A DNA stretch of 64,000 nt, from NCBI RefSeq assembly GCF_964204645.1, contig NC_134028.1, forward strand, positions 4,588,001 through 4,652,000. Direction: 5' to 3'. Below are positions 12,689 to 49,300 of the stretch, piece after piece. A program made the position numbers and the translations under genes. This stretch comes from Tubulanus polymorphus (Eukaryota > Animalia > Nemertea). Within the stretch, counting starts at the first letter, position 1; each line of letters begins with the position of its first letter. Below the pieces are notes generated by a model. The model searched no databases. It was not told where the DNA came from and was given only the letters and a program-made list of their open reading frames with translations.

Positions 12689-13857
12689 CCTTTATTTTTC
12701 ACAATCGATTTAAATAGTGAAACTGAATTTCTGGTGGTTTAAAGTCACAGTGATTTAAGAGTATTGAGAAAATGTCGATCGTCTCTTAGTGTCTGTGGTA
12801 CAGACACTAAGGTTCTTGGTGAACTCAGGAGTTGTTTGAATTGATTGAGGAACTCTACTCAGTAAGTAAGTAGATACTAAAATCAATCAATTCCAACCAA
12901 AGCCCATAGCATACGGCTTATTACTACCATTAATATATACGCTATGAAACTGTAACTGTCAACGGATCTCTATAACTCGCGATTCCCGATCAAGCTCACC
13001 TGCTTATCTGACCAATAATCAAACCAAATCACCAAATCCTACTACCACAGCGATTCAAAAATTATTTTACAGGGCGCCGCCATTTTGAATATTTCGGTCA
13101 TGTGACTTTAATAAGGGCTATTCTGGTATACTATTCATATATTTTTGGACCGATTTTCACCGATTCTCGTTCAACTCGAAGTAGGGTCACTCCACGTTCA
13201 AACTGTATCGTTAAATAGAAAGCAAGTTTAGGTATATGCGATAGGTCAATTGACCTGTGTACGGCAGAAATTTGAAAATGAACATTTCATGATTCTCTGG
13301 TTGGTACAACAGAGTGAGTTACTTTGCTCCTCTACGATTGAGGAATGGCTCCGATAAATATTCAACCGCAGCATTCCCTCGCAGCTAATACCCAGGGTTG
13401 GGAGAAAGTCCATCGGCGCTATCACAAATACTTAATTAATGTTTGTAAGCGGCTTCGTGTGGAAGATGAGCTGCATTTCATAGATCTCATAGATCACCTA
13501 ATTCTACCTCTCTTCGAGATCTTGGCCAATTTCCCATACTCATTGAAATAATTTTATCTTCTTTGAAATAATTGGTTAAATTGCATGAAAAATTACCATT
13601 AGTACCATCCATGAAACATTACGAAACATGTCCGATTTACTTCGTCACTTGGGACGATGTTTCAGAGATACGGTACCCACAGAAATAAAACTCTGAAAAC
13701 ACTGATGCCGTTGTCGGAGCCATTTTTATTTCAATCATAAACGTAATCTTGACTAGAAAGTGAATATTGAATATTCATTTGGGATATTTTAGTCTAAGCA
13801 TATGCACATATGAGAATATGTTGAAACAAATTTCTGGGCTTCCAGGTTCGAAAAGAA

Positions 13858-16800
13858 TTAATTTCTCATACAAGCTGGAGATATGGAATCAGTTGTTGAA
13901 CGTGTGACGCGAGTCGAACCAGACTCATTCTTATCACATTGTTTCGTATTTGACGAGTAGGTAAGAAACTTCAGCTCAACGTGTGTGACTTGACTCAAAT
14001 CAACCGAGGAATCATCAGATATTTGTAGTGTCCAGGTTGTGAAGGGAGGTAAAGCAGATAGTTCGTCTTGGTTCTCATTATACATGCAGCCTAATTCCGT
14101 AATTTCATCTGCAAAATGATGAAAATAAAATAATTTAGGCTACAAGTAGGCTTCCTATGCGCAATACTTTGCGAAGACTTCCTGCTAAAAAAACCAAATA
14201 CATGTACCATTGTAAATTATGAAAGCGATATTCAAGAACGCAAAATACCTTAAAAGGCGCAACTTGCATGATTTTAATGTCTCGTGTCAGTCGGGTCCAG
14301 TTGCACAAAATATGTGTGATGTAAACCAGTGTATGAGATCTAATGACATTGGTATTTATCCAAACTTAAACGAGCCTTCGAGCCTAGATGTTTTATCAGT
14401 AATAATGATAATTACCTGTTGAAAGTATATATTTGTAGCCTATCGTTTTACCATCGCCGAAGAAACTATAAACCTTGCCGCGGTACCTGTCTGAGAATTC
14501 ACCAGCCCTCGACAGCAAAATACCTAATTCATCATCGGTCGATTTAGCTCCGTGAACGACGATTCTCATTTCAACGATGCGAATTCTTTCGTAATCTGCA
14601 AACGACGGCTCATCGATATCAATGACGAAATTTACGCTTCGATCCTTTTTCAAAAGCGTAATCGGGCATTCAGATTCGGTTAGCGCATCACCCGTGCAAT
14701 TTTCGTTATCCCTCAGATTCAAGTAGATATTCAACGGTTTGCTGCTGCATTTGAGGTCGGGTTCCAGCTTGAACAGAGTGGTCGCTTGGATTTTCGTTAG
14801 GACAGTCGACAGATCGTCTTTCAATAACGGTATGTTCTCTTTCGAACATTCGGTAAATTCGTTGTAGAATTTCGATTGGCAATACAAACGGATGACGTCA
14901 TGAACCAGTTCCCGATAATAAAACGACTGTCTATAAACTTTGCTCAGTAATTTCTTCGTCACCTCATTTTGTTTCAAGGATTTTTCATATTCTTTTTCCA
15001 GTTCAGATTTGTAAATCTCAGATAGTTGTAAACTTTGTCTTAAACGCGCAGCACTCTGCGCTTTGACGCCGATGTTGATGGCTTCTTTAGTCAAAGCTTC
15101 GCCCCAAACAGTCATCTCAATAAGCGAAGCCTTCACTGTGTCGATATAAGCTGCGAGAAGTGGGATAATCATCGCGTCCAGTCGCTGTTCTATCAATGTC
15201 TTCAAGGCTTGCCACTTTCCGATTTGTACTTTAAGTCGAGCTGTATCACTGACTGTACGCTTGTCGTAGATACTTTCTATTGTGTTGCCTTGGATTCCAG
15301 TTCTGTAACTATTACTGGCTTGAATCACGCGTTTTATTATCTCTTCCATTTGTAGGATATCTCTAACAACCTTAGCCAAATCCAGGTACCCGTTAACTAT
15401 AACCGCAGGTCCTTCAGCGTTTGCAAATATCCCGGAAATTACGCTCAAAATATCCAAATTATCCATATCAGCCATTTGAGTTCGAAGTCTCTTCATGTCT
15501 TCAGCGGATTTGTCTCGAGCCTTTTTAAACTCTAATTCTAACATACCTATAGTACTAGAAGCGACACTGAACGCGGTCTCCGCGTCTGTCTTCAGACTCT
15601 TTATGTGCTCCATCGGTTGTTGCATTTTGCTTATCGATAACTTAACTCGTGAAAGCGACTCAGCCGTATTTTGACCGCTACTTTCTAGATATTGTATGTT
15701 GTCGACGTGATCTCGAAGCATCGTCGCTAGTACCTTCGCGTATCCTTTGTAAGTTTCCATAGATAGCGGAGGTACGTTGCGTACATCAGAATTTTTGTGT
15801 AAAATCACATCCATCACATTCTGTCGCGCCAAATACGACATCTGCTGAAGATCGTCATCCTTCGGGTGCCCGGAGTTTCTCAGCGCTTCAGCAGATGCGA
15901 CCGCGGCGACCTCTTGTAGCAGATCGACGGCGATATCGATATTATCCTGGTCGCCATTTTCTATGAGACTCTTTGCGCAAAACAGGGCTGTTTGTAAGAA
16001 GTCGAGGCGCTGAACGGGAATTGCGAAACTTTCCTTCGAAGCGACCGTGCATTGAAACGGGGCTATTATTTCTGACGCGATAAGCAAAAACGAACCATCG
16101 TTATTCGTTTCGTCATTGTATGAAATTGCTACTCGAGTTTTTGATGCGTCGGATGTTCTGATGAATTGGGTCGTACACCCAAGCAATTCTATATTCGTCG
16201 ATGGCTTGAAGTTGAATTTCAAATACGAGCCTTCTTCCATGTAGAATGTCTTAGTGACGATTTTTAGACGGTATATTACGCTAGCCCCGCCGCTGAACGA
16301 AACGGAAAACGCGAAGATTCGCAACTCCTTCAGATCCGCCCGATCTTTGACTTCGGACAAAATCTCGTTCAAATCGACGTGAGTTTCGTAGATAGTGATG
16401 ATCCCATCTTCGTCGTCACGTCTCAGGAATTCGGGTGAACCGCATTGAGAATAACAGTTCCTACGCCCACAAGGTGCAACGTCAGTGGACTGCAGTTTAA
16501 TTTCTCTAAATTCTATCAAAGCGTTTATACTGAAACGAAGGGTTTAACAACTAATAAGTTCTCATTTCTACCTATGAGATGAATAAAGTAAATGAAGATA
16601 CTCATTCTTTCTTGTAACTGGTCACAGATACATATATGCTTAAAATCTGTTATTCAATTGGACACAAAAGTATTCCAAAACTGAATATTTTTACGAACCA
16701 GAGGGCTAGATTTTTATTAGCTCTGAGTCTATTATTGTATATCATTGTCAGACCCCTTTAAAAATAAGTTCAAGAAATCTTACTCTAATTCCAAGATAGG

Positions 16801-19800
16801 AGAAGTTGAAATTAGTCTGTAGTGGATCAAAGATGACGAGTCAAAATTACTACAAAATAGAAAAATATGATTTTGTCAATATAATTATTCTTATAATTAT
16901 TCTTATGTTTATAATCGTAATAACATTATAAACCATTTCAATGCAGTCATTCCGAAGGAAGTTGATTTTTTCAAATTAACCATCTACTCATTACACATAA
17001 ACGATTATACAATGATTACTCACATTTTTATTTTCTTTAGATGTTTAAGGTTACCAAACACATCCGGGGCTATAGTCACGATCTCTGAACTCGATAAATC
17101 TCTAAAATACAATACCATATATGGTGTGATACAAGTAAATTGATAAACATAACGTAATTATGGTTCACTCACAGCTCCTCCAAATTTTGTAGTCCATCAA
17201 AAAATCCCTTCGGTATATTGCTGATCTTAGCCATTTTTCTGGAATTGGAAATTGATAAAATGAAAACCCATTTTTTAAAACTAAACGGTTGAAAATGTTT
17301 TTAGATAATGATAATCAATAACGTACATTTTGGTGACGTATTTGGCACCTTCGAATAAATTAGTGGGAAGCCTCACCCCGGTAATATCAATCGCAGAAAA
17401 ATCGCTGAGAAAAAAGATACAGATGATTATTTTTTTCTGGAACTTTTCTACTCGACAGTGTAACCGCTAGAACCTTTACAACATTCCAGCCGAATTGAAA
17501 CTTCATTTTGCAACGTTCAAACTTGCCGAATGTCATGTACAGACACGCTATCTGAGACTGAGTTTTAAACAAAATAAACTCAGATTTCTATCTCATCAAA
17601 TGTAAGACTATAATTAATTTTGATTCATCTTGTGTTTATGATGTATTTTAATGGAGGCTCAGCTGTTTTGATAGATATACCTACATTTCTGTCTGGCCGG
17701 CTAATAGACTACTATAAATAGTACGCCACATTTCTGAAAAAAACACAAGAAAACAACCAGTCACTTTGTCCTGTATTGCAATGCTCTATATTACGATGTA
17801 CTGACCGGTCGGTTTTGGTCCTTGGCACGTTCGAATGTAAGTGTCACTTTTGGCATTGTTGTCCAAATCGGGCTGCACTGCGAATAGTGCGCACAGGCCT
17901 AACTTAGACGCGTAAAAAGTGCACTTGAAATCTCGAGCGTCGTAACATTTCGCTTGGCACAATTCGCGAGAAATGTTTAAATCCGACGGATAACTCTCAA
18001 TGGCTTTGAATCCAGGTGGCGCTATGACGTCCTTAATTCCGTAGAATTTATCTGAAATTCATATTAGATTATAATATTTTAACTCAAATGTCTCTTTGAC
18101 ACAGCGGGATGGTACTTTGACATAGTAATGATAGTATAACCCTCAATTCAACTTAAGAGTTTTGTTGAAATTGATCCCAAAGACCGGTTATTGATTGACC
18201 CGGGTTGGGCAACCCAATAGTTAACCCGATAGACGCCGTTCAGTCTATATAACATCTACTGGTTCACTTTTGGTTCATCATTTCATTGGATTAAGAACCC
18301 ATTTTACTCTTTACATGTGATTAACGCGGTACTCACCGTCTCCCTCTCTGATGTAAATTGAAGTTTCATTTTCGGAAGTTGGAAACATGCGTGATGTGAA
18401 GCATAGAAACGAATGCGGCTGATAATAAGCAGCGAAACAATATTTTGTACTCTCCATACAATAAGCCAAACATTCTTCAGCCGTTTGGAGTCCTTGCAGA
18501 TAGGTGATAACTGAATTCATAATCGTATTCGCCCTCTTCAGGAAACAACCATTGTATTCATCCGCCATGTTTGCTGAAACAAAATCACCGAGTTTAGAAT
18601 CAAGGAACTCGTTAGGACTATAACAGAGTCAGATCAGAAATCATCAACACCAGAGCTAAAACCCAACACAATCTCACAACAGCAGAACATACATTGCCAT
18701 AGTCGTGTTTGTGGCGGTCGTTTCTTGTGGCAAATTCTTTTATAAAGAGTCGCGTCTTCGACGGGAGAAGTCAACTCATCAAGCGGGAATCTATATATTT
18801 TACAGTCGTTATTTCCATTGAATTCGTAACCGACGCATCCATGTGTACTGTATTTTGAACAGATCTTCCGGCAACCCTCCGAACTAGCGACTTGATTTTC
18901 AATTTCTCCAGCTCCAGTGTAATCAGGCATTTCCTTATAATAATCTAAAGTTTTTGAAAAGATACTTCACGAAAAGAAATATTCTGTTAGGTGATATGTA
19001 TTGCATTAGGGTCTTTATTGTAATCATTGTATTGTTTATTTAGATATGTCTTTATCTTCTTTTCCAGTGCAGCCCCCTTGATTGGTTTAGCGAGACGCTA
19101 ATACATAACTGTTAGATCAATAAATCATTATGTACACTATATTACTCAGTTTTAATATGAAGTAAAAATTTATTTGTTGATGACCAATCAAAGACGAGCG
19201 CGCTTCCACTAAACAGATCGGATTCTTCCGATCAAGGACATTACTTACCACTTCCCAATTTCAAATTGAACTTGGATGTAGTCGCTGATTTTAGATGTAC
19301 AAATCCACAAGTTGGTACATTTCCATAAGTACCATTAGTAAACTGTACCCCGATGCAGTAATGGGGAACTTCGAGGCAGCGGAACAAACATTGGTCAAGA
19401 GTTAGATTTCTCAGCGTGTATACTATTTCTTCCGCTTTCGCCATTTGGTATCGGTTTTGTATGAAGCACCCGTGATAAAAATTATTAGGATGATCTTAAA
19501 ATATGGAATAGAATTTTTTTGAATTTTACCATGAACATTCTACCATCGTTCGTTCATTATTTGGATATAATTGGAATAATAATCATAAATACATACGTGG
19601 ATTCGGATTGACATAGCATCCGGCAATATTGACGCAATCTTCAACTTCAGTAGAATTACCCACACAGTCGGAACCGCCTCCACTTTCAGGGGGGTTGTCA
19701 CACTCTCTCCACCGCTCGCGTGTTCCTTGGCCGCATTTTTTAGAGCACTGTGACCATCCACCCCAAGAACTCCAGTAGCCGTCAACTTTAAGTTAAGCAA

Positions 19801-22800
19801 TAAAACAAAGTGGCGCTTTGATGAAACCCAAATATCAAGATCTTATTCAATTCCTGCGTTTGATTTTAGAACATTTTGTATTTCAAGAAAATGAATTGGA
19901 ATAACTATGATTGGTATGACGCTAGAGCAAAATCCGTTATTTTGCGAATAATAACCTAATTTCTATCCGAAATGCTTCTGATGTGTAATCTTTGTTTCAA
20001 TACCTGGACAATCTTTCAGCGTACATTCGACTTTATCCGACGCAGATCCTTCACATTGTTTACCTCGATGACGCGGTGTCGGGTTGTTACATATTCGGCT
20101 GCGAATCTGCGATCCCTTTCCGCAGCTTGCCGAACACGGAGTGTATTTCGCCCATTCGGCCCATCCTCCGTCAACTGAAGAATAAGACGAATTTTTGAGA
20201 CTTGCAGAAGTATTCTGAGCTTTCTAACGCGGTGCGGCGACCTGGTTTTTATCACCATTTTCATAGCATAGGAAAAAATGCCTGTAATATTTATGCTAGA
20301 ATAGGAGATCGTGATCATGCGAATGGTACCTATAAAACATTGGTAAAATCTAAACCTACCTGCACAGCCTAGAATCTCGGTACGTAGGCAGCCCAGGTGT
20401 TTACTAATTCCCAGCACATTCAGCCGTACATATTTTGCTTTCAACACCCGCGAGAAATATGACGTGACAAGTTTTGAATTTTCGCTGTTCCCAGGAAATA
20501 TCTGCAATGGTAACAGGAAATAGTGCTGTTTTTCTACGTCTCAAAAACTGGGAATTTAAAGCTCTCAACTATAAATCTGAAAGTCAGGGCCCAGTTTCGG
20601 TGGTGACATGGCTTAGATTTATGACCGGTAGTAATAGGGGTAATGGGCTTTCATACCAAAGGTCGAAAGGTCGAGCCCGAGAAATTTTCCAAAATGTTAA
20701 AATAACAACAATTTCTACTTGAATTAGTCGTGAAACTCATGAAAATGAAAAATAAATTCTCACACGCTCGAATTTATTTTCCATTTTCTACTCACTAGAA
20801 GAAAGTGTGAGTAAAGTGTGAGTGAAATAGTTTATATTTTAAACATATTTCGAGTAAAAATATTTGTATGAGTTAGATTTTTAAACATTAAAAGTGTGAG
20901 TAAAGTGTGAGTGAAATAATTCATATTTAAAACAGTGAATATTTATATTTGAATGAGTTTTAATAAAAATTTTGTTATAAAAATGAAGAAAGAAGAAGAA
21001 GAACCCAACTTTAAAATCGAAATCAATGAAACCAATAAATCATTTTCACAGTTTTACATTAAAAATTATATTTCAGCAACAAATTTAGTGTCCGCAAGAC
21101 ATTATAAAATCGATAATATTACTATGATTAATCAAATATTATCAAATGAAACATATTTACTTACTGAACTAGTAGATACTTTTGATACTGGCGTTAAAAA
21201 TCCTAAAATATTCAATACAGTTTTAAATTTTAAAGGAACTTTAGATGAAAACATAATTAATATTCTTAAAACTCCTTTCAATGAAAGAAATGATGATTTA
21301 ATACTTTCTAAAGATTACAATGATTTGATTAACTTAAGAATTGAAAAAAGACAATTATATTATTTCAATTTTGATAATAAACAAATTATCTATAATGAAA
21401 ATTCATCAAATATTGGAATTCAATGTGAATTAGATAATGAAAAATCATTTAAAGATATTGCAGTTCAATGTAAATTAGATGATGAATTTAGAAAATTCAA
21501 TCCTAATGAAAAAGTGCATTGTTATTGCGGAGGTAAATATTTAAAATCACATAAATCAAAGCATTATGAAACAATTAAACATAAAAACTGGCGTAAAGAG
21601 TAACAATTCTACATTATAATTATTGAATTGAGTTAAATGATTTAAATATCTAATAGACTGTTAAAATGATAAATATTTTGACAGTTGAAATGATAAATTG
21701 TTTGACAGTTAAAATGATAAATTGTTTGACAGTTGAAATGATAAATATTTTGATAGTTAAAATGATAAATTGTTTGACAGTTGAAATGATAAATATTTTG
21801 ACAGTTGAAATGATAAATTGTTTGACAGTTAAAATGATAAATTGTTTAACAGTTAAAATGATAAATTGTTTGACAGTTGAAATGATAAATTGTTCGACTG
21901 TTGAAATGATAAGACAGTTGAAATGATAAATTGTTTAACAGTTGAAATGTTAAATTGTTTGACAGTTGAAATGATAAATTGTTTGACAGTTGAAATGATA
22001 AATTGTTCGACTGTTGAAATGATAAATTGTTTGACAGTTGAAATGATAAGACAGTTGAAAAGATAAATTGTTTGACAGTTGAAATGATAAATTATTCGAC
22101 AGTTGAAATGTTAAATTGTTTGACAGTTGAAAAGATAAATTGTTTGACAGTTGAAATGATAAATTATTCGACAGTTGAAATGATAAATTGTTCGACTGTT
22201 GAAATGATAAATTGTTTGGCCGTAAATTTAATTGTTATTTGATTTAATCATTTAAAAGTTTAATATTTTTAAAATGATTATAAAATATTTAATTAAAAAC
22301 TAGCAAATATTTTATAAACTGTTTAATTTTTCTCTTAAATAAATGGATGGTTTCATTCCAACTGGGAAAAGTGATTTGAAACATTATTTAGTTGCTGGAG
22401 GTTTAATATTGGCGGCATTATACTTTTACTATGAAAATATTTCAAAAGATTTGATGAATGAAAATAATAAATTGAGTAAAAAATTAAAGAAGTTAAATGG
22501 AAACAATCACAGAAATAGAAAGAATAAAAAAGTTAATTTAGAAAATGATTTAGAGGATTAAAACAGCATCTTTTAATTTCATATATTTTGACTATAAAAA
22601 TGAGTGAAAATATATTAAACTTATTACATCTAATATATAAAAATCAACAGAATATTAAATCAATTATTATGCTTACAGGTTTATTTTCATTCTCAGTTTA
22701 TACTATAAAACAGTTGTTAGAATTCTATGATTGCTGTAAAATTAGATACACTGAATTAATAGAAAATATGAATTATATTTCAGATAGATTGAATAATATT

Positions 22801-25800
22801 AAATGCTGTGAAATTTGTAATAAAAGATATAAAAATTTAAAGAGTTTAAAAACTCATAAATATATTCATGAACTTGATGAAAAATTATATGAATCAAAAT
22901 AAGAAATCGACTGTTAAATTAGCTGAAAATATAAAATATATTAGTTGAATTTTAGTAATCCTAAAATAAACGTTAATAAAAAAAAGGGGGTTGAGGTATC
23001 AATGTATTAGATACCCATACTAATGGATGAGTGGATGAATTGGATGAATTGGATGAATTGGATGAGTGGATGAATGGATGAGTGTAATAATATATAATTT
23101 ACATATGTTTTTTATTTTTAAAACAGTAAGAGTTTGATTTGAAGTTATTTTATCAATTTTATACTATATTTAAATATTATTTTGATAATATATATATATA
23201 TATTGTGTTAAATTTAATAAAGAATGAAAATATTATATTTATACTCGTACTATTCTTCCAATTTATGTGTTAAAAAGTAAAATATATATATTATTATACT
23301 CATCCACTCTTCCACTCATCCAATTCTTCCAACTCTTCCAACTCATCCACTCATCCATCAATATACAGTGAATTCTACCCTATTAGATACCCTAATACCA
23401 TGTATTAAATATGTATTAAATACGTATTGATGGTATTAAATACGTATTAATGGTATTGAATACATATTATGCTTTATTTCTGAAAATGAAGTAACAGAAG
23501 TAATTTATGTTTTAATTCATTCAAGTATGATATTGTAAATTCTTTACATTTGACTAGGATAATACAAGAGTGATATTAGTTAGTTGGCTTATTCAATAAG
23601 AGAAACAATGAAATAATACAAGAGTGATACTAACAGTTAAAGTTATTGAATTTCTTGTTAAATCTATTTGAATTCTAGTCAATTCTTGTTAACCAATAGC
23701 GCGAATAGAAATCGAATAGATTTGAATAAAAAAACAATAAGTTACATCAGTTAGAACCTTTATTATTTTTTAATTACTTCTGAGACTACAATTTCCCTAT
23801 GAATATAAATTTATAAAATAAAATCCTAATTCAAAATATTATAGAATTCACTGTATATTGATGGATGAGTGGATGAGTTGGATGAATTGGATGAATTGGA
23901 AGAGTGGATGAATGGATGAGTGTAATAATATATAATTTATATATGTTTTTTATTTTTAAAACAGTAAGAGTATAAATTTAATAAAGAATATAAATATTAT
24001 ATTTATACTCATACTATTCTTCCAATTTATGTGTTAAAAAGTATAATATATATATTATTACACTCATCCATTCATCCACTCTTCCAATTCATCCAATTCA
24101 TCCAACTCATCCACTCATCCATCAATATACAGTGAATTCTATAATATTTTGAATTAGGATTTTATTTTATAAATTTATATTCATAGGGAAATTGTAGTCT
24201 CAGAAGTAATTAAAAAATAATAAAGGTTCTAACTGATGTAACTTATTGTTTTTTTATTCAAATCTATTCGATTTCTATTCGCGCTATTGGTTAACAAGAA
24301 TTGACTAGAATTCAAATAGATTTAACAAGAAATTCAATAACTTTAACTGTTAGTATCACTCTTGTATTATTTCATTGTTTCTCTTATTGAATAAGCCAAC
24401 TAACTAATATCACTCTTGTATTATCCTAGTCAAATGTAAAGAATTTACAATATCATACTTGAATGAATTAAAACATAAATTACTTCTGTTACTTCATTTT
24501 CAGAAATAAAGCATAATATGTATTCAATACCATTAATACGTATTTAATACCATCAATACGTATTTAATACATATTTAATACATGGTATTAGGGTATCTAA
24601 TAGGGTAGAATTCACTGTATATTGATGGATGAGTGGATGAGTTGGAAGAGTTGGAAGAATTGGATGAGTGGAAGAGTGGATGAGTATAATAATATATATA
24701 TTTTACTTTTTAACACATAAATTGGAAGAATAGTATGAGTATAAATATAATATTTTCATTCTTTATTAAATTTAACACAATATATATATATATATATTAT
24801 CAAAATAATATTTAAATATAGTATAAAATTGATAAAATAACTTCAAATCAAACTCTTACTGTTTTAAAAATAAAAAAACATATGTAAATTATATATTATT
24901 ACACTCATCCATTCATCCACTCATCCAATTCATCCAATTCATCCACTCATCCATTAGTATGGGTATCTAATACATTGATACCTCAACCCCCTTTTTTTTA
25001 TTAACTTTTATTTTAGGATTACTAAAATTCAACTAATATATTTTATATTTTCAGCTAATTTAACAGTCGATTTCTTATTTTGATTCATATAATTTTTCAT
25101 CAAGTTCATGAATATATTTATGAGTTTTTAAACTCTTTAAATTTTTATATCTTTTATTACAAATTTCACAGCATTTAATATTATTCAATCTATCTGAAAT
25201 ATAATTCATATTTTCTATTAATTCAGTGTATCTAATTTTACAGCAATCATAGAATTCTAACAACTGTTTTATAGTATAAACTGAGAATGAAAATAAACCT
25301 GTAAGCATAATAATTGATTTAATATTCTGTTGATTTTTATATATTAGATGTAATAAGTTTAATATATTTTCACTCATTTTTATAGTCAAAATATATGAAA
25401 TTAAAAGATGCTGTTTTAATCCTCTAAATCATTTTCTAAATTAACTTTTTTATTCTTTCTATTTCTGTGATTGTTTCCATTTAACTTCTTTAATTTTTTA
25501 CTCAATTTATTATTTTCATTCATCAAATCTTTTGAAATATTTTCATAGTAAAAGTATAATGCCGCCAATATTAAACCTCCAGCAACTAAATAATGTTTCA
25601 AATCACTTTTCCCAGTTGGAATGAAACCATCCATTTATTTAAGAGAAAAATTAAACAGTTTATAAAATATTTGCTAGTTTTTAATTAAATATTTTATAAT
25701 CATTTTAAAAATATTAAACTTTTAAATGATTAAATCAAATAAAAATTAAATTTACGGCCACACAATTTATCATTTCAACAGTCGAACAATTTATCATTTC

Positions 25801-28800
25801 AACTGTCGAATAATTTATCATTTCAACTGTCAAACAATTTATCTTTTCAACTGTCAAACAATTTAACATTTCAACTGTCGAATAATTTATCATTTCAACT
25901 GTCAAACAATTTATCTTTTCAACTGTCTTATCATTTCAACTGTCAAACAATTTATCATTTCAACAGTCGAACAATTTATCATTTCAACTGTCAAACAATT
26001 TATCATTTCAACTGTCAAACAATTTAACATTTCAACTGTTAAACAATTTATCATTTCAACTGTCTTATCATTTCAACAGTCGAACAATTTATCATTTCAA
26101 CTGTCAAACAATTTATCATTTTAACTGTCAAACAATTTATCATTTTAACTGTCAAACAATTTATCATTTCAACTGTCAAAATATTTATCATTTCAACTGT
26201 CAAACAATTTATCATTTTAACTATCAAAATATTTATCATTTCAACTGTCAAACAATTTATCATTTTAACTGTCAAACAATTTATCATTTTAACTGTCAAA
26301 CAATTTATCATTTCAACTGTCAAAATATTTATCATTTTAACAGTCTATTAGATATTTAAATCATTTAACTCAATTCAATAATTATAATGTAGAATTGTTA
26401 CTCTTTACGCCAGTTTTTATGTTTAATTGTTTCATAATGCTCTGATTTATGTGATTTTAAATATTTACCTCCGCAATAACAATGCACTTTTTCATTAGGA
26501 TTGAATTTTCTAAATTCATCATCTAATTTACATTGAACTGCAATATCTTTAAATGATTTTTCATTATCTAATTCACATTGAATTCCAATATTTGATGAAT
26601 TTTCATTATAGATAATTTGTTTATTATCAAAATTGAAATAATATAATTGTCTTTTTTCAATTCTTAAGTTAATCAAATCATTGTAATCTTTAGAAAGTAT
26701 TAAATCATCATTTCTTTCATTGAAAGGAGTTTTAAGAATATTAATTATGTTTTCATCTAAAGTTCCTTTAAAATTTAAAACTGTATTGAATATTTTAGGA
26801 TTTTTAACGCCAGTATCAAAAGTATCTACTAGTTCAGTAAGTAAATATGTTTCATTTGATAATATTTGATTAATCATAGTAATATTATCGATTTTATAAT
26901 GTCTTGCGGACACTAAATTTGTTGCTGAAATATAATTTTTAATGTAAAACTGTGAAAATGATTTATTGGTTTCATTGATTTCGATTTTAAAGTTGGGTTC
27001 TTCTTCTTCTTTCTTCATTTTTATAACAAAATTTTTATTAAAACTCATTCAAATATAAATATTCACTGTTTTAAATATGAATTATTTCACTCACACTTTA
27101 CTCACACTTTTAATGTTTAAAAATCTAACTCATACAAATATTTTTACTCGAAATATGTTTAAAATATAAACTATTTCACTCACACTTTACTCACACTTTC
27201 TTCTAGTGAGTAGAAAATGGAAAATAAATTCGAGCGTGTGAGAATTTATTTTTCATTTTCATGAGTTTCACGACTAATTCAAGTAGAAATTGTTGTTATT
27301 TTAACATTTTGGAAAATTTCTCGGGCTCGACCTTTCGACCTTTGGTATGAAAGCCCATTACCCCTATTACTACCGGTCTAAAATCGACTTAGTTATATAG
27401 CCAATCTAAGAACTAATGACTATCAAGAAACTTAAAACTTAGGTCCCAAGATCCAAAACAAGTTCTGGACTTAATTCCCGACTGAGCGACTTGGTCCAGA
27501 GGTTATTTTCACCAAGAAAATTATGATAAGTTGATAATGTGGCAGCCCTCTCATTTTGTTTAAGGCAAATTGAATTCGAGCAAGACCGCAACTCACATCA
27601 TTCCCGTCGGCGAGATAGACTTGAGACCACGTGTCTCGATTTTTACTGACGGTAATATTCAATTTCGTTACAAATTTGTAGCCGTTATCGGTATTAAAGC
27701 CTTGAATCTGGAGACCTGTAAGGAATGAGGAATCATATCACTACAGCTGCATAGAACAATACCAAGTAACATGAAAAAATGCTATGTTATTTTCGTCTTC
27801 CTCAGCAGGGCTTTCCAACATCTACTCCCTGGAAGTTATGCTTCCATAAAGTAGTCTTGTTATTTCATGAAGTCTAGCATCATATTCAAATAAAAATGTG
27901 TAAGAATATTCATGCAATTAAAGTTTAACCAATTTATGAATATAGCTATGCATGAATAAAAACAAAATTCTGCGATCACCTACCGAAAACCTTCTCCTCA
28001 TTAGGAAACTGTATTTCTAGAAACGATGGAAGTTGATCAGAGTTTACGCACCAAGCACCCGCGTTATTTCCAAGTCTAGCCTTATGTGGCATCGAATTGG
28101 AATCATAGTTATCTGCAGTGATTAGGATATCTTCAATTCTACCATCTTCTACACCGAGAGGTCGAGAACATTCTAAAGAAATAATGAGAGAAGATATAAC
28201 TGAACTGAAATAAATCGCCATCATCGCCAATAATTTCTTGATTAATGGGCACAGATAATAGTTTTTGCCAGTCACAGCAACGAATCGAGATGAACTTGCT
28301 CGATTTTAAGGTTTTTCACTTACCTGTGTTTGGAACTTTACAGACAAAAGAAAGATCCGCAAAACACGATGTCGCTACGTAACCTTGCGTCACACTAAAT
28401 TTGATGCAGTCGTTATCAGATGGGGTCGTAGTCAATTGTGTAGCTGGGTGACCGTCTGAATTGTACCATTTCCTAACACCTCTGTCATATCGAAATCCTC
28501 CAACGAATTGGGCACCTTCCATACTGAAAATATTCAACGACAAAACCGTTTCTATCATGTCTACTACACCATATGTTCATTCAGAGAGTCTTATCCAAGA
28601 AACACGTCCCGCAGACGCACAACTTAATCGTATCCACATTCATTTACCCCAGATTCTTAACAATTTTAGTGGAAACTACACGACTGAAGTTGGAACTCAT
28701 CGAGACCTGCTGGATTCAATTAAAATGACGTCAATCCTTCAGTTTAGAAAGATGAGAAGAAATAGTATAAGGAAAAAATTTTTTTTTACAAAATCCTATT

Positions 28801-31479
28801 TTTTGTCGTCCAGTAAAAGAAAAAAACACGTGAAAACGCGTAAAATGTTCGAAGGATTTTTATAATTTAACTTACACCTTTTCCGTAAACATGATGTCAA
28901 TCTCGTAGTTCGAATGGGGATAGAATATGTGCGAATACGTCGAATATTCTTGACATAACCTTTCAGCGTCCGGGAAATTATTTCTCGCTTTGTGGTGTCC
29001 ATAACACATTCCATTTTGAGTTAACCAATATCTATCTCTTCCACTATATGATTTGATGTACGTCAGAGCACTAGTATAAGCTGGGCATTCTGTGTTGAAG
29101 TAGTTAGAGATTCAAGATTAGTTTTCACGCACTTTGTTATATGCGTTCTCTGTATAGGTGACGATATGTTTGAAACAAACTACTACAGTAACTTAATGCG
29201 ATCAAACTACGAAAAGGAGAATTTTCATATCCACGAGATTCCTCCTAAATTGCTCTAAACTACCCAGAGATGCATTGTGTTAGTGGGCCGTGATGCAGCT
29301 GCGCCTGTAACGGGTAATGCAGCTGCAACGAGTAATACAGCTGCAACGGGATGATGCAGCTGTAACGGGTGATACTCACTGATTGGATCGACGCATGCGT
29401 AGACTACATGCGACTTTTCGTATTTGCAACGATGTTCGGTATAAACTTCAAAAGTTATTTTGCATTCATTTCTTGATTCACAAGTTTTTCTTGCTTTTTC
29501 CCACGTCTTGCTTGGATAGGTGTGGAACACATCCGGCCAAGCCTATTGTAAAAAATGAGACAAATGTATATTGTAGTGAAATGTATTGTCTAGCGATAAA
29601 CAACATATAGCTACCATTGCTTTCATATCACAATTATCAGGACTCGAGCTGGTCGGTTCGGCCAGCCACTGTATCATATCAATCTGTAAGTCATCCGGGC
29701 AGGAGAGGGTTAACTCGAAATTCGGTGAGGTCAACACTTCATACTTATCTGAAAGAATTGACAATTTGACAATTGAACCTATATTTCACTACCCGAGGCC
29801 ACTTTCACACACATATTCCCTGGTAATAAATTCCATATCCCAAATTGGATCACGGTGCCCCAGATAACGGACCAAATTATTGCATGTCTATAAGATCTAT
29901 GAAACATTTTAGGTTCATATCAATCTTTTTGACAATTCAATAAAGATATACATGTATTGACAAGCCGTATTTTAACCGTTTTATCAACGAATTAGAAAAT
30001 GATATCTCAAGCGTTACTAAGCTACGAATGAGAGATTCCAACAACAATGTTTAATTCATGACAATAACCTACCTAAACCTCTGACTGTGGATTAATTATT
30101 AGTAACATAATCATAAAACAATACTCACAATTTAAACGTTTTTCACAAATGTATTTGTATTTGTCAACACAGCTAACACTTTTATCTTTACTTGTCAAGC
30201 ATTTTCCCGCCGATTGAGCATGCTTGTTTAAAAAAAGAAGGTGTATTCCATTATCTCTGACTAAAAATTCAAATAGAAATGAAATGTTGCAATTGTGTAG
30301 AGAGGGGGTGGGAATTTTCAATGAATTTATACGTACTGAACTTTCTTTTATAATGAACACCAAACCAATATTCATCACCAGAATTTAATTGAGATTTTAT
30401 GAATTTTAATTCAGCCGGATTTTGTTCCGAAAACAACATTGCGCCGTTTCGCCAGCATTCTTTTCGGGCCCCATACCAACTGGCTTGTGCCTCCGAGATC
30501 TTATAGCAAATATCGTCACGATACTGTAGCCACCCATTGGGACACTCAGACACTAAATTTCCTGCAATGAAATAAATCGTACCGAGATGGGGTCCGAATT
30601 GTTGAATCTTTTCTCCCTGTTTTTTACAACTTAATTTTCTTTTTTCGTTCATATTTCTATGACCAATATACCAATCAAACCAGCTGATGATTACCTTTTC
30701 TTTAATATCGCTCATTTGAATATCAAATGTAACAATGCGCGCTGATAAGGATATTTAAACATTGATACTATACTGTATACTCTCGATAATTCTCTTCTCC
30801 TTCAATAGATCATAATTCTAACGGAATTTTAGTGACATTTTTGAACTTTTCAGGATCAATAGACTTCAAGATGTCGTTTTAATTGTTTTTACAATTCGGT
30901 TACGGTACCCAAAAACATGGGGTCTGGGAATTGTACCGGCTTCTTAGGCTAGGAGCGATTCATTCAAATTATACGAAATTTAGAGGCTACCGATACTATA
31001 TGAATGACGTGTTGATATTGACAAACATATGATCTTGATTTTCCAAATACTGAGTCATTAACTAAGGCAGCAAAATCAGTCACTGGCCAGTTCATGCTGG
31101 ATGGAAGATTGTTTATATGAACGGGAACCAAAATCTACTTCGATTGAAAAATTAATCTTTGAACAATGTGAATTCTCGACCATTGTCCAGATCCAATTCC
31201 AGAAAATCAAACCACCGTTTTGTTCCGGCAGGTGTGGATCGTTTGTAATAAACGTCAAATCAAATCGATCAAATACAGAAGAAAGTGAATCATCCCTATT
31301 TCAAGATCAAGATATATGTTCAAACAATTCTTTTTTAGGGCGACGGACCAGCTGCCACCACCTCGTCTTTCAGGACAGCTGCAAAAATAGTTTTCACTGA
31401 GTTTCTTACCTGCAACTAGTTGTATGTAAATGTTTAGAAAAGCCAGCAGAAACTTCACCCAATGTTCTTCATTCTCCAT
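13858..31479 (-). CDS. Secreted mosaic lectin/TSP1/PAN/LRR protein with a C-terminal putative toxin-like region, copy A (multi-exon; palindromic element in an intron)
   Basis: Signal-peptide exon [24 protein letters not shown] (31479-31410). CTL1 [16 protein letters not shown]...W..A...C (~30560-30130). SUEL-like lectin (~29750-29380). CTL2 (~29090-28325). F5/8 [12 protein letters not shown]...ARL...AWC...CLRTEILGC (~28170-20360). 2x TSP1 (DGGWGEW...CSASCG; ~20175-19610). PAN/Apple-like exons (~19495-17900). LRR-like mini-exons ([21 protein letters not shown]; ~17410-16785). Large exon ~16510-14415 and last exon ~14108-13858. The joining of exons into one gene is inferred from order, strand and splice sites. 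Confidence 0.75.
20953..21603 (+). CDS. 216-aa element-encoded protein with a C-terminal CxCG...H...KH zinc-finger-like motif (left arm)
   Basis: Intronless, ATG start, open for 651 bp in very AT-rich [26 protein letters not shown] resembles motifs I recall from Polinton and large dsDNA virus proteins; internal repeat [20 protein letters not shown]. Confidence 0.65.
   Translation: MSFNKNFVIKMKKEEEEPNFKIEINETNKSFSQFYIKNYISATNLVSARHYKIDNITMINQILSNETYLLTELVDTFDTGVKNPKIFNTVLNFKGTLDENIINILKTPFNERNDDLILSKDYNDLINLRIEKRQLYYFNFDNKQIIYNENSSNIGIQCELDNEKSFKDIAVQCKLDDEFRKFNPNEKVHCYCGGKYLKSHKSKHYETIKHKNWRKE
21655..22219 (+). repeat. 24-bp minisatellite (TTGACAGTTGAAATGATAAATTGT), left arm
   Basis: More than 20 tandem units with variants (TTCGAC, AATATT, truncated 16-bp units). 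Confidence 0.95.
22343..22561 (+). CDS. 72-aa single-TM protein with a basic coiled-coil tail (left arm)
   Basis: TAAATG start context; hydrophobic [16 protein letters not shown] followed by a K/N-rich tail. Confidence 0.55.
   Translation: MDGFIPTGKSDLKHYLVAGGLILAALYFYYENISKDLMNENNKLSKKLKKLNGNNHRNRKNKKVNLENDLED
22588..22902 (+). CDS. ~100-aa protein with a hydrophobic segment and a C2H2 zinc finger (left arm)
   Basis: [21 protein letters not shown] fits C-x2-C-x12-H-x3-H; hydrophobic [15 protein letters not shown]; probable ATG at 22600. Confidence 0.6.
   Translation: MTIKMSENILNLLHLIYKNQQNIKSIIMLTGLFSFSVYTIKQLLEFYDCCKIRYTELIENMNYISDRLNNIKCCEICNKRYKNLKSLKTHKYIHELDEKLYESK
23022..24956. repeat. 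Three nested hairpin modules built from (TGGATGAA/G)n ... (TCATCCA)n; the middle one is the palindrome apex
   Basis: Modules at ~23022-23380, ~23845-24140 and ~24608-24956. The apex spacer is an internally deleted version of the loop of the flanking modules; both share ATATGTTTTTTATTTTTAAAACAGTAAGAG and TACTATTCTTCCAATTTATGTGTTAAAAAGTA. Confidence 0.85.
25075..25389 (-). CDS. C2H2 zinc-finger small protein, right-arm copy
   Basis: Translation identical to 22588-22902. Confidence 0.6.
   Translation of the reverse strand: MTIKMSENILNLLHLIYKNQQNIKSIIMLTGLFSFSVYTIKQLLEFYDCCKIRYTELIENMNYISDRLNNIKCCEICNKRYKNLKSLKTHKYIHELDEKLYESK
25416..25634 (-). CDS. 72-aa single-TM protein, right-arm copy
   Basis: Translation identical to 22343-22561. 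Confidence 0.55.
   Translation of the reverse strand: MDGFIPTGKSDLKHYLVAGGLILAALYFYYENISKDLMNENNKLSKKLKKLNGNNHRNRKNKKVNLENDLED
25757..26348 (-). repeat. 24-bp minisatellite, right arm (one extra unit)
   Basis: Reverse complement of 21655-22219; the spanning ORF is 94 aa versus 86 aa, i.e. 24 bp longer. Confidence 0.95.
26398..27048 (-). CDS. 216-aa element-encoded protein, right-arm copy
   Basis: Same as 20953-21603 except K>E (KSHKSEHY). Confidence 0.65.
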   Translation of the reverse strand: MSFNKNFVIKMKKEEEEPNFKIEINETNKSFSQFYIKNYISATNLVSARHYKIDNITMINQILSNETYLLTELVDTFDTGVKNPKIFNTVLNFKGTLDENIINILKTPFNERNDDLILSKDYNDLINLRIEKRQLYYFNFDNKQIIYNENSSNIGIQCELDNEKSFKDIAVQCKLDDEFRKFNPNEKVHCYCGGKYLKSHKSEHYETIKHKNWRKE

Positions 31480-32339
31480 ATTATAAGTTGTCAATTTGTA
31501 GATGAATAATGAATGCGAAACTGCAAAATAAGTAAATGTTCTAAAGTTTTAATTCAAATCAAAATCTGGTAATTTTTACAGAATAATTTTGTTTTTGATA
31601 TCGATTCATTTTCAATTTTTCGTGATGAAAATCTAAAGAAGATATTTCTTAAAATCGTTTATCTCATTCAACAGAAGTGTTCACTCAAATAAAATCGAAC
31701 AACTGTTGAGTTATTAATTCATATTGATATTTCTTGAAATTCTGATCCCTGTTTTTTATCTCAGTCGAACTTTCACTAAAATATGTAAAATAAATGTAAT
31801 GATACTCCTTACCAGCGTGCGTTCCGCGACCTGTAAAATCATTCGTAGAAATGACGTTGAATGCACAAAACGTTCGCCAGATATTGAGATTGAAAATTGC
31901 TGAGCGTGCAAACATTAACTCTTGACTCGCAGCAATGTGTGTCAATTGCGCAGGTTTTTGGGAAATGTGAAAAGTATAATATACTGGTTGTGGTACACTG
32001 AGTTCGATTTTCTATCCAAAAATAATTCTATCTACCGATGAACGTAAATCAAACCCCGACAAACCACCCACATCGGTGCAGAATGATTTTGGCGAGGCAT
32101 AATATCGGGGGTATGTATGTATTTGTACATTGAGTAAACATGGCCGGGGGGTTGACTGTATTCTATTTTTGTGAACCACTGGTTCCACGTGTTAGGTTAC
32201 AGATTCTGAAACCGAGTTCTTCCCCTTTTAACCAAGTTCTACCCAACGAAGTTCCACTCGCAGATTGAACCCGATCCAAACCATCCAAGGTTTATCTTAG
32301 GAAGAGAGTTCAAGTATCCGAATAACCATAGAAGCGATA

Positions 32340-33345
32340 ACACTGAAAACCTCATTATCTAATGAGTAAAGACAGTTTATTGACACGAACGTTTTCGGGA
32401 TCATATCCCCTCATCAGGTGAAATACAAGTGAATCAAATGATTAAACTGCAGGTTTATATACAACATAAGTTACAAAATTACAAGTGCTAAATTCTAAGA
32501 CAAGTATTTAATTACAAACTAATTATTTGAATACATTTAGGATAGAGGATGAGCCGTTTTGGAATAATTGTTGATTTAAAGAGGGTCGTTGCGCTTTAAT
32601 AAACAGGGCCTCCCTAATTTTACAGTCGAGATCAGATGAACCTTGGTCTAGAATTTTGAATTTGTTTTCACTGAATTCCTGATCGTCCAATCGCAGAAGT
32701 CTTTGATCTGTGTTCTTTAATCCTGATGGCCAAATGTCGTTTAGTTTTCCCAATATAGGAAGTGTTTATATCACATAAACAATTAATTTTATATATGACT
32801 TTAGCCTTCAGCGATTTAGGGGTAGCACATTTCAAAGAGAAAAACTTCTTAATTTTGGTCGTAGTGAATGCGCATTTCGAGTTGATTTCAAAATTCCTTT
32901 TAAATAGATATTTTAATTTTGGGGCAAATAGGATTGACGGATTACCAATACACGGTAATGAAATGAATAGATCAATTCCATCTTCATCAACAGGTTTCGG
33001 TTTAGGTTCGGAGTTCTGTTTTGATTTCAAAAATCATCTATTGATACATTGATCGATGACATGAATGGGAAACGCATTAGATTTAAACAGATTTTTCAAG
33101 AAATTGGTTTCTTCTGAAAAGATGGTCCAGTCACTGCAAATATTGTAGACACGAAAAAGCATGGTATTGATGAGTCCTATTTTCCATTTGTACGGGCACA
33201 TGGCGTTGAAATTCAAAAGTAGGCCTGTGTTGGAAGCTTTCCTGTACACTCGAGATATAAAGTCACTACCGGTTTCTAACGGAATTTGTATTTCGGTATC
33301 GAGGAAAAGTAATAGATTAGGACCCAGTTCAAAAGTGAATTTTAG
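32340..33345 (-). mobile_element. 5'-truncated, frameshifted Penelope-like retroelement (RT C-terminus + GIY-YIG endonuclease + pLTR)
   Basis: LKFTFE..LLFLDTEI..VYRKASNTGLLLNF (RT thumb region), VIYKINCLCDINTSYIGKTKRHLAIRIKEH (GIY-YIG) and KIREALFIK...PSLN, spread over three frames; hammerhead and AATAAA downstream. Confidence 0.9.
32384..32420 (-). ncRNA. Minimal type I hammerhead ribozyme in the Penelope pLTR
   Basis: Minus strand reads CAC-CTGATGA-G-GGGA(tatga)TCCC-GAAA-ACGTTC-GTG, then TCAATAAA. Confidence 0.8.
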
Positions 33346-34368
33346 GCTGGTCGTAACCGACATAAGCAGGGAGCGGTTTAGGTTGTAGATTCTGAACCTA
33401 GTTTTACCCAACGGGCTCCACGCGTAGGCGCCGCAGATTGTACATTTGCTGAGTGAAATCAGATTATACTGATCAGATTATACTTATGAAAAGAGAGAAT
33501 GAACATCTGTACTTCTTCAACCCGCTGTTCAAATCAGCTGTCTGATACTTAGTTTTCAATTATCGACCTCACGCATGACGAAAGAGCCAAGAGACTGCAG
33601 CGGGAGAGGCTGGGAGAGGGAGAGTGAGAGGACGGGTGGAGAGGGAGAGGCCGGAAGAGGGAGGGAGTGTCCCACGGCGTCACAGTTGCTCCAGATTAGC
33701 CGGAGGCACCCCAAATCAAACCATAAAAATTTCACGGCAGCGCGGCGGATAGGTACGGTCTCGCTCCTGAGCAGCAACATCGCGGGCGGCAAAAACATTA
33801 AGCCTGGCTTATGTCGACGAGTGACGCGACGCCTACCGAATCCTACCGACGCAACTGAGGGCAACCGCGATCGCGGCCCAGCCTATGTCGTATGCGCTCC
33901 GATTCCCAGCAACTGAGGCCGACTAGCGGATATGACACCCCACCTAGTTGCTCCCTGCTTATGTCGGTTACGATTACTGATCTGGCAACTGCAACGGCTC
34001 AGATGGTCACGTGATAAGCATTTTCAGAATGAATTTAAATTATTCTTATTTCGTTTCTAGATATTCGGTCCAGTCATCTGCCGCGCTGAATGAAGGCTTG
34101 GTTTGCGTTTGAAAATTGAATTTGAAAGTTTGTGTCAAGATACGAATAACGTTAACTATCGGTCAAAATTTGCACTACGTAGGCCTATATTCGGTCTCTG
34201 ATTGGCTGTAATTCCTGCGCTCAGTTCCATCGCGTAACAAATGCGCTTATGTCGGTTGCGATCGAAAGCAACTGTCCGCCTACCGTAGGCCGGAGTACAA
34301 CATGGGCAACTAGCCGGAAATAGAGTGATGCGTACGCGGGCACAGGTCTACGTGCTATCGAACTACAC

Positions 34369-46300: not shown

Positions 46301-49300
46301 AGTTGGTAAATTTCCATCAGTTCCATTAGTAAACTGTACCCCGATGCAGTAATGGGGAACTTCGAGGCAGCGGAACAAACATTGGTCAAGAGTTAGATTT
46401 CTCAGCGTGTATGATATTTCTTCCGTTTTCGCTATTTGGTATGGATTTTGTCTGAAGCACCCGTGAAAGTAATTATAAGGATGATCTAAAAATATGATAT
46501 AGAATTTAAAGAATTTTACCATGAACATTTAACCATCGTTCGTTCATTTTTTGCATATAATTGGAATAATAATCATTAATACATACGTGGCTTTGGATTA
46601 ACATAGCATCCGGCAATATTTACGCAATCTTCAACTTCAGTAGAATTACCCACACAGTCGGAACCGCCACCACTCTGAGGGGGGTTGTCACACTCTCTCG
46701 ACCGCTCGCGTGTTCCTTGGCCGCATTTTTTAGAGCACTGTGACCATCCACCCCAAGAACTCCAGAAGCCGTCAACTTTAAGTTAAGCAATAAAATAAAC
46801 AGTGGCGCTTTGATGAAATTTAAAATATATCAAGATCTTATTCAGTTCCTACGTTTGGTGTTAGAACATTTTGTATTTCAAGAAAATGAATTGGAATAAC
46901 TATGATTGGAATGACGCTTGATCGAAATCCGTTATTTTTTCGAATTTTGCGAATAATAACCTAATTTCTATCTGAAATGCTTCTGATGTGTAATCTTTGT
47001 TTCAATACCTGGACAATCTTTCAGCGTACATTCGACTTTATCCGACGCAGATCCTTCACATTGTTTACCGCGATGACGCGGTGTCGGGTTGTTACATATT
47101 CGACTGCGAATCTGCGATCCCTTTCCGCAGCTTGCCGAACACGGAGTGTATTTCGCCCATTCGCCCCATCCTCCGTCAACTGATAAATAAGATAAATTTG
47201 TGAGAACTGCAGAAGTATTCTGTGCTTTCTGAGGCGGTGCGAGCACCTGGTTTTCATAGCATAGGAAAATGCCTGTATGTATGCTAGAATATATTTGTGG
47301 AAAAAGAAAATCAAGACTATATGGTTCACGCGAATATCAAACATTGGTAAAATCTAAACCTACCTGCACAGCCTAGAATCTCGGTACGTAGGCAGCCCAG
47401 GTTGTTACTTATTCCCAGCACATTCAGCCGTATATATTGTGCTTTTAACACCCGCGAGAAATATGACGTAACAAGTTTTGAATTTTCGCTGTTCCCAGGA
47501 AATATCTGCAAAGTGAACAAAAAAGCGCTTTTTTCAAGTCTCAAAAAGCGAGAATTCAATAGCTCTCAAATATAGATCTGAAAGTCAGGGCCCAGTTTCG
47601 GCGTCGAAATGGCTTAGATTTATGACCAGTCTAAAATCTAATTAGTTCTAAAACCAATCTGAGAACTATTGACTGTCAAGAAGCTGTGTTAAAAGTCTCA
47701 AGATCTAAGGTGACTTCTGCAGTTAAGTCCCAGCACATGTAGGTTGGCCTGGAGGTGATTTTCACAAAGTTAATAGTATTGCAGCCCTATCATTTTGTTT
47801 ATGGTGGATTGAATTCGAGCAAGACCGCAACTCACATCATTACCGTCGGCGAGATAGACTTGATACCACGTGTCACGATCTTTACTGACAGTAATATTCA
47901 ATTTCGTTACAAATTTGTAGCCGTTATCGGTATCAAAACCTTGAATCTGGAGACCTGTAAGGAATGAGGAATCATGACATTACACATGCACAGAACAGTA
48001 ACAGGTACGTAACATGAAAAATTATTTTCGTCTTCCTCAGCAGCGCTTTCCAACATCTACTCCCTGGAAGTTATGCTTCCATAAAGTAGTCTTGTTATTT
48101 CATGAAGTCGAGCATCATATTCAAATAAAACTGTTTTAAGAATATTCATGCAATTTACCAGTTTAACCAATTTATGAATATAGCTATGCATGAATAAAAA
48201 CAAAATTCTGCGATCACCTACCGAAAACCTTCTCCTCATTAGGAAACTGTATTTCTAGAAACGATGGAAGTTGATCAGAGTTTACGCACCAAGCACCCGC
48301 GTTATTTTCAAGTCTAGCCTTATGTGGCATCGAATTGGAATCATAGTTATCTGCAGTGATTAGGATATCTTCAATTCTACCATCTTCTACACCAAGAGGT
48401 CGAGAACATTCTAAAGTCAATGAATAAAGAGAGAACTGAAATAAATCACCTTTATCATAAAACGATATACGCTATAACATCGTTTTCAGTTTTCAGTGAG
48501 TAAGTTTCCAAAGAAATAGTTGAACTGATATTTCTCATCAGATATTTCCAATCATTTGTTGTATGGAATCGACCTGAAACGGCATTCTATAAAAAAAAAA
48601 CTTAAAATGACGGGAAAATCAACTGTGACAATCGGGAGAAATTATGAATTAAGCTATATTCTTCCAAGACTATGTCAACGTGAAACATACATTTTCATAT
48701 CGCAACTAGTCATATCAACACGTCATCTTTCGATTAATGGGCACAGATTATTGTTTTTGCTTGTGACAGCAAAACATCGAGAGGAACTTGGTCGATTTTT
48801 TTAGGTCATACCTGTGTTAGGAACTTTACAGACAAAATAAAGATCCGCAAAACACGATGTCGCTACGTAATCTTGTGTCAAATAAAATTTGACGCAGTAG
48901 TCATCAGATGGAGTCATAGTCAATTGTGTAGCTGGGTGACCGACTAAATCATACCACTTCCTAGCATCTCTGTCATATCGAAATCCTCCAACAAAGTTTT
49001 TACCTATCATACTGAAAATAATCAATGACAAAGCCTTTTCTATGATGTCTACACCAGATGTTGATTCTAAGAGTCTAATCCGCAGACGCTAAACGTGTAT
49101 TACGTAATAGAGACAAAAATTCATCTGAATTCCGAGTAATCGCAAATTGATTGGATTGAAAACTACAAAAAAGCGTCCCCCGGGGACATAAGATTACTTG
49201 GACTTGTCGCATTTCACATTTGTATCCACTTATAATGACTTCAATCCTTGAGTTTAGAAAGATGAGAAGAAATAGAGAAATAAGGAAAAAGATATTTTTT

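Follow-up and report, generated by a model that had tools for sequence, protein, structure and literature searches.

The 64,000-nt stretch of contig NC_134028.1 from the nemertean Tubulanus polymorphus that was analysed here (the window) carries at positions 20630–27371 a mobile element of 6,742 bp that is almost entirely palindromic. We read it, with a probability of about 65%, as a cleanly inserted palindromic member of a large, gene-poor family with ends of the Polinton/Maverick type, a family that would be copied and inserted in trans by the enzymes of full-length Polintons, and whose member here would have become palindromic through fold-back at an internal hairpin module. This copy is a young insertion, and the family to which it belongs is old.

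The palindrome consists of two arms of 3,305 and 3,323 bp, with 6 substitutions and 4 indels (24, 9, 1, and 2 bp) between them, or about 0.2%, and of a central spacer that measures 114 bp when counted from the first mismatched pair (23935/24048) and 100 bp when the last short pairing run is counted in. The whole element is a terminal inverted repeat (TIR) with the ends 5'-AG...CT-3', and its GC content is 22.8%, as opposed to 38.4% outside it. Copies of the 6-mer ACCGGT border it on both sides, and the sequence beyond them is not inverted. The insertion lies in an intron of a minus-strand host gene that is duplicated in the window (about 13.2–32.0 kb versus 39.5–52.4 kb, in blocks 77–93% alike), and the second gene copy has kept the empty site. 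The paralogous intron, whose exon ends match, is 330 bp long where the filled intron is 7,095 bp long, and it contains ACCAGT a single time, at which point the flanks of the element align once the element and one 6-mer are taken out. A preliminary description, made from the letters of the window, had noted the two inverted arms of ~3.3 kb around a ~114-bp spacer, the small number of single-nucleotide and repeat-unit differences between them, the doubled ACCGGT between non-inverted flanks, and the uninterrupted paralogous intron, and our comparison of the window with itself agrees on each of these. What the description overlooked were three small open reading frames (ORFs) per arm and a hairpin module of ~330 bp that is present three times, once as the apex. 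An Rfam search of 20600–24200 returned no match.

Because ACCGGT is its own reverse complement, a target-site duplication (TSD) of 6, 4, 2, or 0 bp would look the same in the window alone. The position of the end was therefore read from public runs of the same species, of which there were four, from two studies and at most three samples: X1, X2, and X3 are sets of contigs, and X4 consists of raw Illumina reads from an individual other than that of the assembly. About 12/100 of X4 was read, and 7,968 of its reads aligned to 19900–21640. Among the loose ends listed (24 of 400 rows), unrelated sequence precedes 20630 in 1,446 X4 reads and 20629 in another 429, at a flank agreement of 0.37, i.e., many insertions at unrelated sites share an identical and precise end. 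A one-T extension is present in 23% of the loose ends, near the 31% that host base content would give by chance, whereas an element ending in TAG would extend in nearly all of them. The element thus ends in AGT, and the duplication at this locus is 6 bp. Mavericks are described as having 6-bp TSDs and (AGT)2 or (AG)3 ends (PMC8097293). The same counts speak for the 6-bp TSD and AGT-like end favoured in the preliminary description and dispose of its formal alternative, a 4-bp CCGG TSD with TAG...CTA ends.

The clearest trace of how the palindrome arose is found in the hairpin module, which occurs once in each arm (H1 and its mirror copy) and once as the exact centre of the element (H2). Of 74 positions, 7 are mismatched between the arms of H1 and none between those of H2; each H2 arm differs from the left arm of H1 at 2 of the 74 and from its right arm at 7. 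Since the H2 arms are identical and both resemble the left arm of H1, one arm of the apex module has been overwritten from the other, which is the result that would be expected from a copying turn-round or from recombination inside the module. The 24-bp tandem array found in each arm holds 17 unit variants in identical order on both sides, with one additional unit on the right, which makes both arms recent copies from a single template. H1 is skipped (joint 23011 to 23376) in 10 X4 reads with 7 different starts and in one X1 contig, which, together with the reads that leave the window sequence behind 23821 (see below), marks the module as an add-on. It is bracketed by a 12-bp direct repeat (23005–23016 and 23381–23392) and by a 5-bp TACCC repeat, and its left end is without the outer 11 letters that are present at its right end and at both ends of the apex. 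This small module may itself be a mobile unit; its end gave 0 matches in viral contigs.

The reads place this copy in a large family. For X4, the depth of a single copy can be given only roughly (flank bins of 5–20, with the two paralogues overlapping) and was taken as 5–13, at which the junction reads imply about 200–510 ends, or roughly 100–250 elements sharing the terminus. Copy estimates from X4 reads of at least 90% likeness are about 25–66 for ORF1, 5–28 for ORF2 and ORF3, 5–13 for the AT-rich segment B, and 1–4 for the hairpin module. Behind 20676, 1,298 X4 reads depart from the element sequence, so that further families have only the first 47 bp in common; this terminal core is likely to hold the putative origin and integrase site. 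Since most aligned X4 reads (5,314 of 7,968) show 90–95% likeness, the family is an old one with much variation, and the element looks less like a single snap-back event than like part of a long-standing gene-poor lineage. The snap-back or copy-back dimer proposed in the preliminary description stands in part: the element is a self-complementary duplicate of one end, joined head to head, with a signature of fold-back or recombination at the apex; the derivation from the end of a full-length helper and any interference with it are conjectural. A multicopy family at many sites is evident from the loose ends with unrelated flanks. Strand turns in other copies appear as opposite-strand joints (15 of 77 and 15 of 27 joints listed) at 20727/20730, seen in 132 reads with 80 starts, with 56 letters on the shorter side and contigs in X1, X2, and X3, and at 23745/23754, seen in 21 reads with 15 starts and in one X2 contig. 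The former makes a palindrome of ~200 bp, provided that the end is kept. Other family copies thus turn strand at points other than this apex. Close to the terminus (20749–20780), two inverted 11-bp copies also enclose a loop of 10 bases, and 119, 85, and 71 reads switch strand around this hairpin. These switches are confined to X4 and were not used as evidence; they may stem from mini-elements, from a subfamily whose hairpin is longer, or from library fold-backs.

ORF1, the 24-bp array, ORF2, and ORF3 are all directed inward in each arm, and two of the three ORFs have zinc fingers. No pPolB, integrase, packaging ATPase, protease, or capsid gene is found in the ORF list of the element, whose longest ORF with a start is ORF1, or by a Pfam scan of its three ORFs, in keeping with the earlier statement that integrase, pPolB, ATPase, and capsid genes are lacking. 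The Pfam rows consist of weak C2H2 fingers below the cut-off and three chance-level DUF/RepL rows. Among 1.84 billion representatives, only 13 proteins matched ORF1 at E ≤ 0.001 (best E 7.7e-08), via the C-terminal zinc finger. GIY-YIG nucleases account for 4 of the 7 scanned carriers of an ORF1-like finger, and 2 of the 10 carrier clusters looked up have a label, neither of them informative; GIY-YIG nucleases occur in Polinton-like viruses (PMC5499653). With ORF1, a word-indexed protein search confirmed 0 of 136 candidates, phage records gave no match, and hits in the Atlas stayed under the recognition level. Its single-sequence fold is unusable (mean predicted local distance difference test score, pLDDT, of 33.7), and the alignment of its zinc finger holds no stretch conserved enough to search for loci. 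Protein searches found no homologue of ORF2, and one relative of ORF3, which lies on a 1-kb contig.

Two indels within the ORFs are backed by X4 reads among the rows listed (12 of 17 and 12 of 22), both of 3 bp; two 1-bp deletions within the ORFs are confined to contigs from the other sample, and 18 of the listed indel rows fall in non-coding sequence. With the X4 indels in the ORFs being of 3 bp and most others non-coding, the reading frames seem to be kept open. Among the best-supported substitutions (40 of 306 and 40 of 202 rows), 11 variants fall in the ORFs, of which 3 are silent, 8 change a residue, and 0 introduce a stop. There is no clear purifying signal on the ORFs, which weighs against strong selection. 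ORF1 additionally has a 45-bp internal duplication (21392–21486) with two similar short motifs ending in QC, which we take to recall dynein light-chain binding motifs.

These features can be joined in one course of events. The polymerase of a helper Polinton would copy the family from its ends by protein-primed, strand-displacing synthesis, and displacement would expose a long single strand. This strand could fold at the inverted arms of the hairpin module, which are ~100 bp long, and synthesis would then return along the same end, yielding a product that has that end twice. Such a two-ended molecule would keep both origins and both integration sites, so that a helper integrase, presumably supplied in trans, would insert it with a 6-bp stagger. 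The element stands outside the autonomous Polinton class, given that the core genes are absent, and likely works as its dependent. Steinwaerder reportedly described inverted-repeat rearrangements of adenovirus vectors in 1999. Internal inverted repeats rearrange replicating adenovirus genomes and vectors (PMC2518115), helper-dependent snap-back genomes are known from adeno-associated virus (AAV; PMC8235507), and in yeast, long single strands fold back on themselves at divergent inverted repeats (PMC10164571). The element shares with the AAV and adenovirus products the presence of one end twice, head to head, and probably the dependence on a helper. In contrast, those products are free, packaged, and derived from the laboratory or from infection, whereas the element is a heritable genomic insertion from an old family.

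Several findings count against this reading of the element as a fold-back product of a helper-dependent family. The signature at the apex fits a deletion between repeats in a parent with long TIRs equally well. Under that explanation, which we consider unlikely, a Polinton with TIRs of at least 3.5 kb and a hairpin module in each lost its gene-bearing core by recombination between directly oriented module arms, and the same homogenised apex is predicted. Gene-bearing TIRs of about 2 kb are described in butterfly polintons (bioRxiv 10.1101/2025.02.07.637071), and many relatives in T. polymorphus do continue into other sequence: 81 X4 reads leave the window sequence behind 23821, just before H2, and 78 behind 23775, which implies that many relatives have other centres. 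However, vertebrate Maverick TIRs are given as 46–1,447 bp (PMC8097293), and the low depth of the hairpin module in X4, together with its absence from the in-arm site in some copies, indicates that the module is not a fixed part of the family arm. No listed read or contig of X1–X4 spans the apex or the whole element, and the read analysis does not give the facing direction of the two opposite-strand joints. As for a helper, the terminus, searched as an exact 23-letter pattern, had 0 matches in viral and 0 in metagenome contigs. In viral contigs, none of the candidate stretches for ORF1 (13 and 35) or for ORF3 (23) held, and in metagenome contigs none of the 220 for ORF3. The finger match of ORF1 is short (about 30–50 residues) and its carriers are unnamed, so this match does not tie ORF1 to Polintons. 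The TSD length of 6 bp comes from a single site, and the end AGTAAT has 5 of the 6 letters of (AGT)2, i.e., it is one base off a motif that was taken from vertebrate Mavericks. The host, to judge from its spliced genes (C-type lectin, TSP1, ELP6, and others), is an animal but not a vertebrate.

We regard as distinctly unlikely a non-autonomous foldback transposon moved by cut and paste through a DDE transposase of the Mutator, P/Galileo, or Ginger type, in which case the 24-bp array would supply extra transposase-binding sites. The plan of the element does resemble that of foldback transposons (FB, Galileo, Tetris), whose TIRs are modular and very long, contain a tandem array, and enclose a short middle that varies (PMC4079207), and the insertion site contains CCGG, the target of Ginger1 (PMC2836005). 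Nevertheless, Tetris foldbacks have TSDs of 8–10 bp instead of 6 bp (PMC4079207), and Ginger1 has 4-bp TSDs and TGTNR ends (PMC2836005), whereas the element has Polinton-type ends beginning in AGT and holds in its arms intronless ORFs in which the raw-read indels keep the frame. A Mutator- or P-type foldback was accordingly rejected by end position and TSD length, and Ginger1 with a 4-bp CCGG duplication was ruled out by the reads, since a 4-bp reading would need a TAGTA end and not TGTNR. It is very unlikely that the palindrome is an assembly artefact in which chimeric reads or the assembler mirrored a normal or one-armed insertion. The lack of a spanning record would agree with an artefact, as would the absence of the flank beside the insertion from both contig runs of the other sample and the preponderance of the right-arm base at 2 of the arm differences (11/12 and 16/20 reads). 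Against it stand the differences between the arms at 10 places and the non-inverted flanks, whose junction across a single 6-mer falls exactly at the paralogous empty site. In addition, one X1 contig that matches the left flank without a difference enters the element by 23 letters (the rule for bridging being 31) and stops at 20652, which would be the exact branch point of a 31-letter graph were the right junction, with its 7 shared flank letters, present as well.

When compared with Polintons/Mavericks (adintoviruses), the element is alike in its 6-bp TSD, its AG...CT ends with an AGT-like start, its TIRs, and its AT-rich, intronless small ORFs (PMC8097293, PMC6431247, PMC11296320). It differs in lacking the five core genes named above, in its size (6.7 kb versus 13–25 kb), in being TIR throughout, and in ending in AGTAAT where they have AGTAGT. 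Names like Polinton-1N1_DR mark non-autonomous families. Such families, of which Polinton-1N1_DR is found as a family name in PMC9341505, would share with the element Polinton ends without core genes and a high copy number, a comparison made by name; Polinton-N1A_NV has a capsid gene (PMC11296320). No description of a fully palindromic Polinton derivative whose apex is a hairpin module was found in the literature searched, which covered few subscription journals and no supplements. What is likely new here is the fully palindromic, Polinton-type build, as non-autonomous Polinton derivatives are already known as such. PMC6431247, PMC8502044, PMC3185507, and PMC3597656 provide general background.

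Polinton replication has so far been argued from gene content, and its mode awaits experimental study of the life cycle (PMC5499653). Palindromic derivatives are predicted by protein-primed, strand-displacing replication and are not required by cut-and-paste transposition, so the family would record its replication mode in the genome. The 47-bp end common to several families would also map the likely cis signals. If such elements recur across animals, they would form an under-described class of repeats that annotation tools enter as unknown foldbacks.

One run shows a marked excess of arm sequence. In X1, the flank allele of the window has a depth of about 18 and four arm contigs with 0–1 differences from the window have depths of 1,559–2,061, an excess of 86–113x over the flank allele or of 25–33x over the contig that merges both paralogues, although contig depth of this sort cannot be read as copy number and no library type is recorded for the run. 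X1 shows raised depth across the whole family, and the ratio of arm to flank depth in X2 and X3 is about 2. The excess may reflect a burst of insertions, free replicating DNA, or library bias. A bolder extension, which we hold to be doubtful, is that the palindromes are satellites of an animal Polinton virus, i.e., self-complementary linear DNAs that are born repeatedly at a dedicated turn-around module, replicate extrachromosomally on the helper polymerase, are amplified ~100-fold in the X1 sample, and could silence the helper through long hairpin RNA read through from the inward genes. On this account the X1 excess predicts free linear DNA of 6.7 kb; in X4, there is no pile-up of molecule ends at the terminus. 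Also in X1, the insertion-bearing flank allele (20129–20652, at the depth given above) compares with a depth of 45.6 for the paralogue, and perhaps just one of the chromosomes carries the insertion.

Table 1. Features of the palindromic element and of its insertion site, in window coordinates
Feature	Position	Strand	Remarks
Left TSD copy, ACCGGT	20624..20629		From arm comparison and read loose ends fixing 20630
Terminal core, 47 bp	20630..20676	+	Starts AGTAAT; from read loose ends at both sides
Left arm	20630..23934	+	
ORF1, 216 aa	20953..21603	+	N-terminal part without known match; C-terminal CxCG..H..H zinc finger
24-bp tandem array	21656..22218	+	About 24 units; same variant order as in right arm
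ORF2, 72 aa	22343..22561	+	Hydrophobic stretch and basic tail
ORF3, 100 aa	22600..22902	+	Hydrophobic stretch and C2H2-like finger; 70%-identical relative P0019
Hairpin module H1	23017..23375	+	GGATGA-rich inverted arms, between TACCC repeats; missing in some copies
Segment B, AT-rich, non-coding	23376..23827	+	11-bp and 20-bp repeats
Apex, hairpin module H2	23828..24155		Core 23844–24139; arms identical; spacer 23935–24048
H1 mirror copy	24608..24955	-	
ORF3 mirror	25075..25377	-	
ORF2 mirror	25416..25634	-	
24-bp array mirror	25762..26345	-	One extra unit
ORF1 mirror	26398..27048	-	One residue different
Right arm	24049..27371	-	Mirrors left arm
Right TSD copy, ACCGGT	27372..27377		
Host intron around element	20502..27596	-	In discoidin-like (F5/8 type C) region of multidomain gene
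Empty site, ACCAGT	47625..47630		In paralogous intron 47506–47835

The host gene and its copy form a tandem pair on the minus strand (13206–31957 and 39523–52423), with C-type lectin, TSP1, discoidin-like, and cysteine-rich exons. Each has a single exon of 715 or 719 aa (14396–16543 and 40893–43052) with no Pfam and no solved-structure match, whose helical middle and beta-rich tail presumably recall pore-forming-toxin-like proteins. The stretch between the gene copies (32668–36146) holds a broken reverse-transcriptase element with RVT_1 at 34841–35575 and minus-strand fragments (32668–33477), without a Pfam match, that resemble a Penelope-type element. Elsewhere in the window are host genes for a protein with a GBBH-like N-terminal domain (1538–2035), an FG-GAP protein with a Ser/Thr-rich 24-bp repeat exon (5526–10928), and the Elongator subunit ELP6 (54503–55186), as well as a tandem array of about 6 units of 59 bp (28+31) at 61462–61806.

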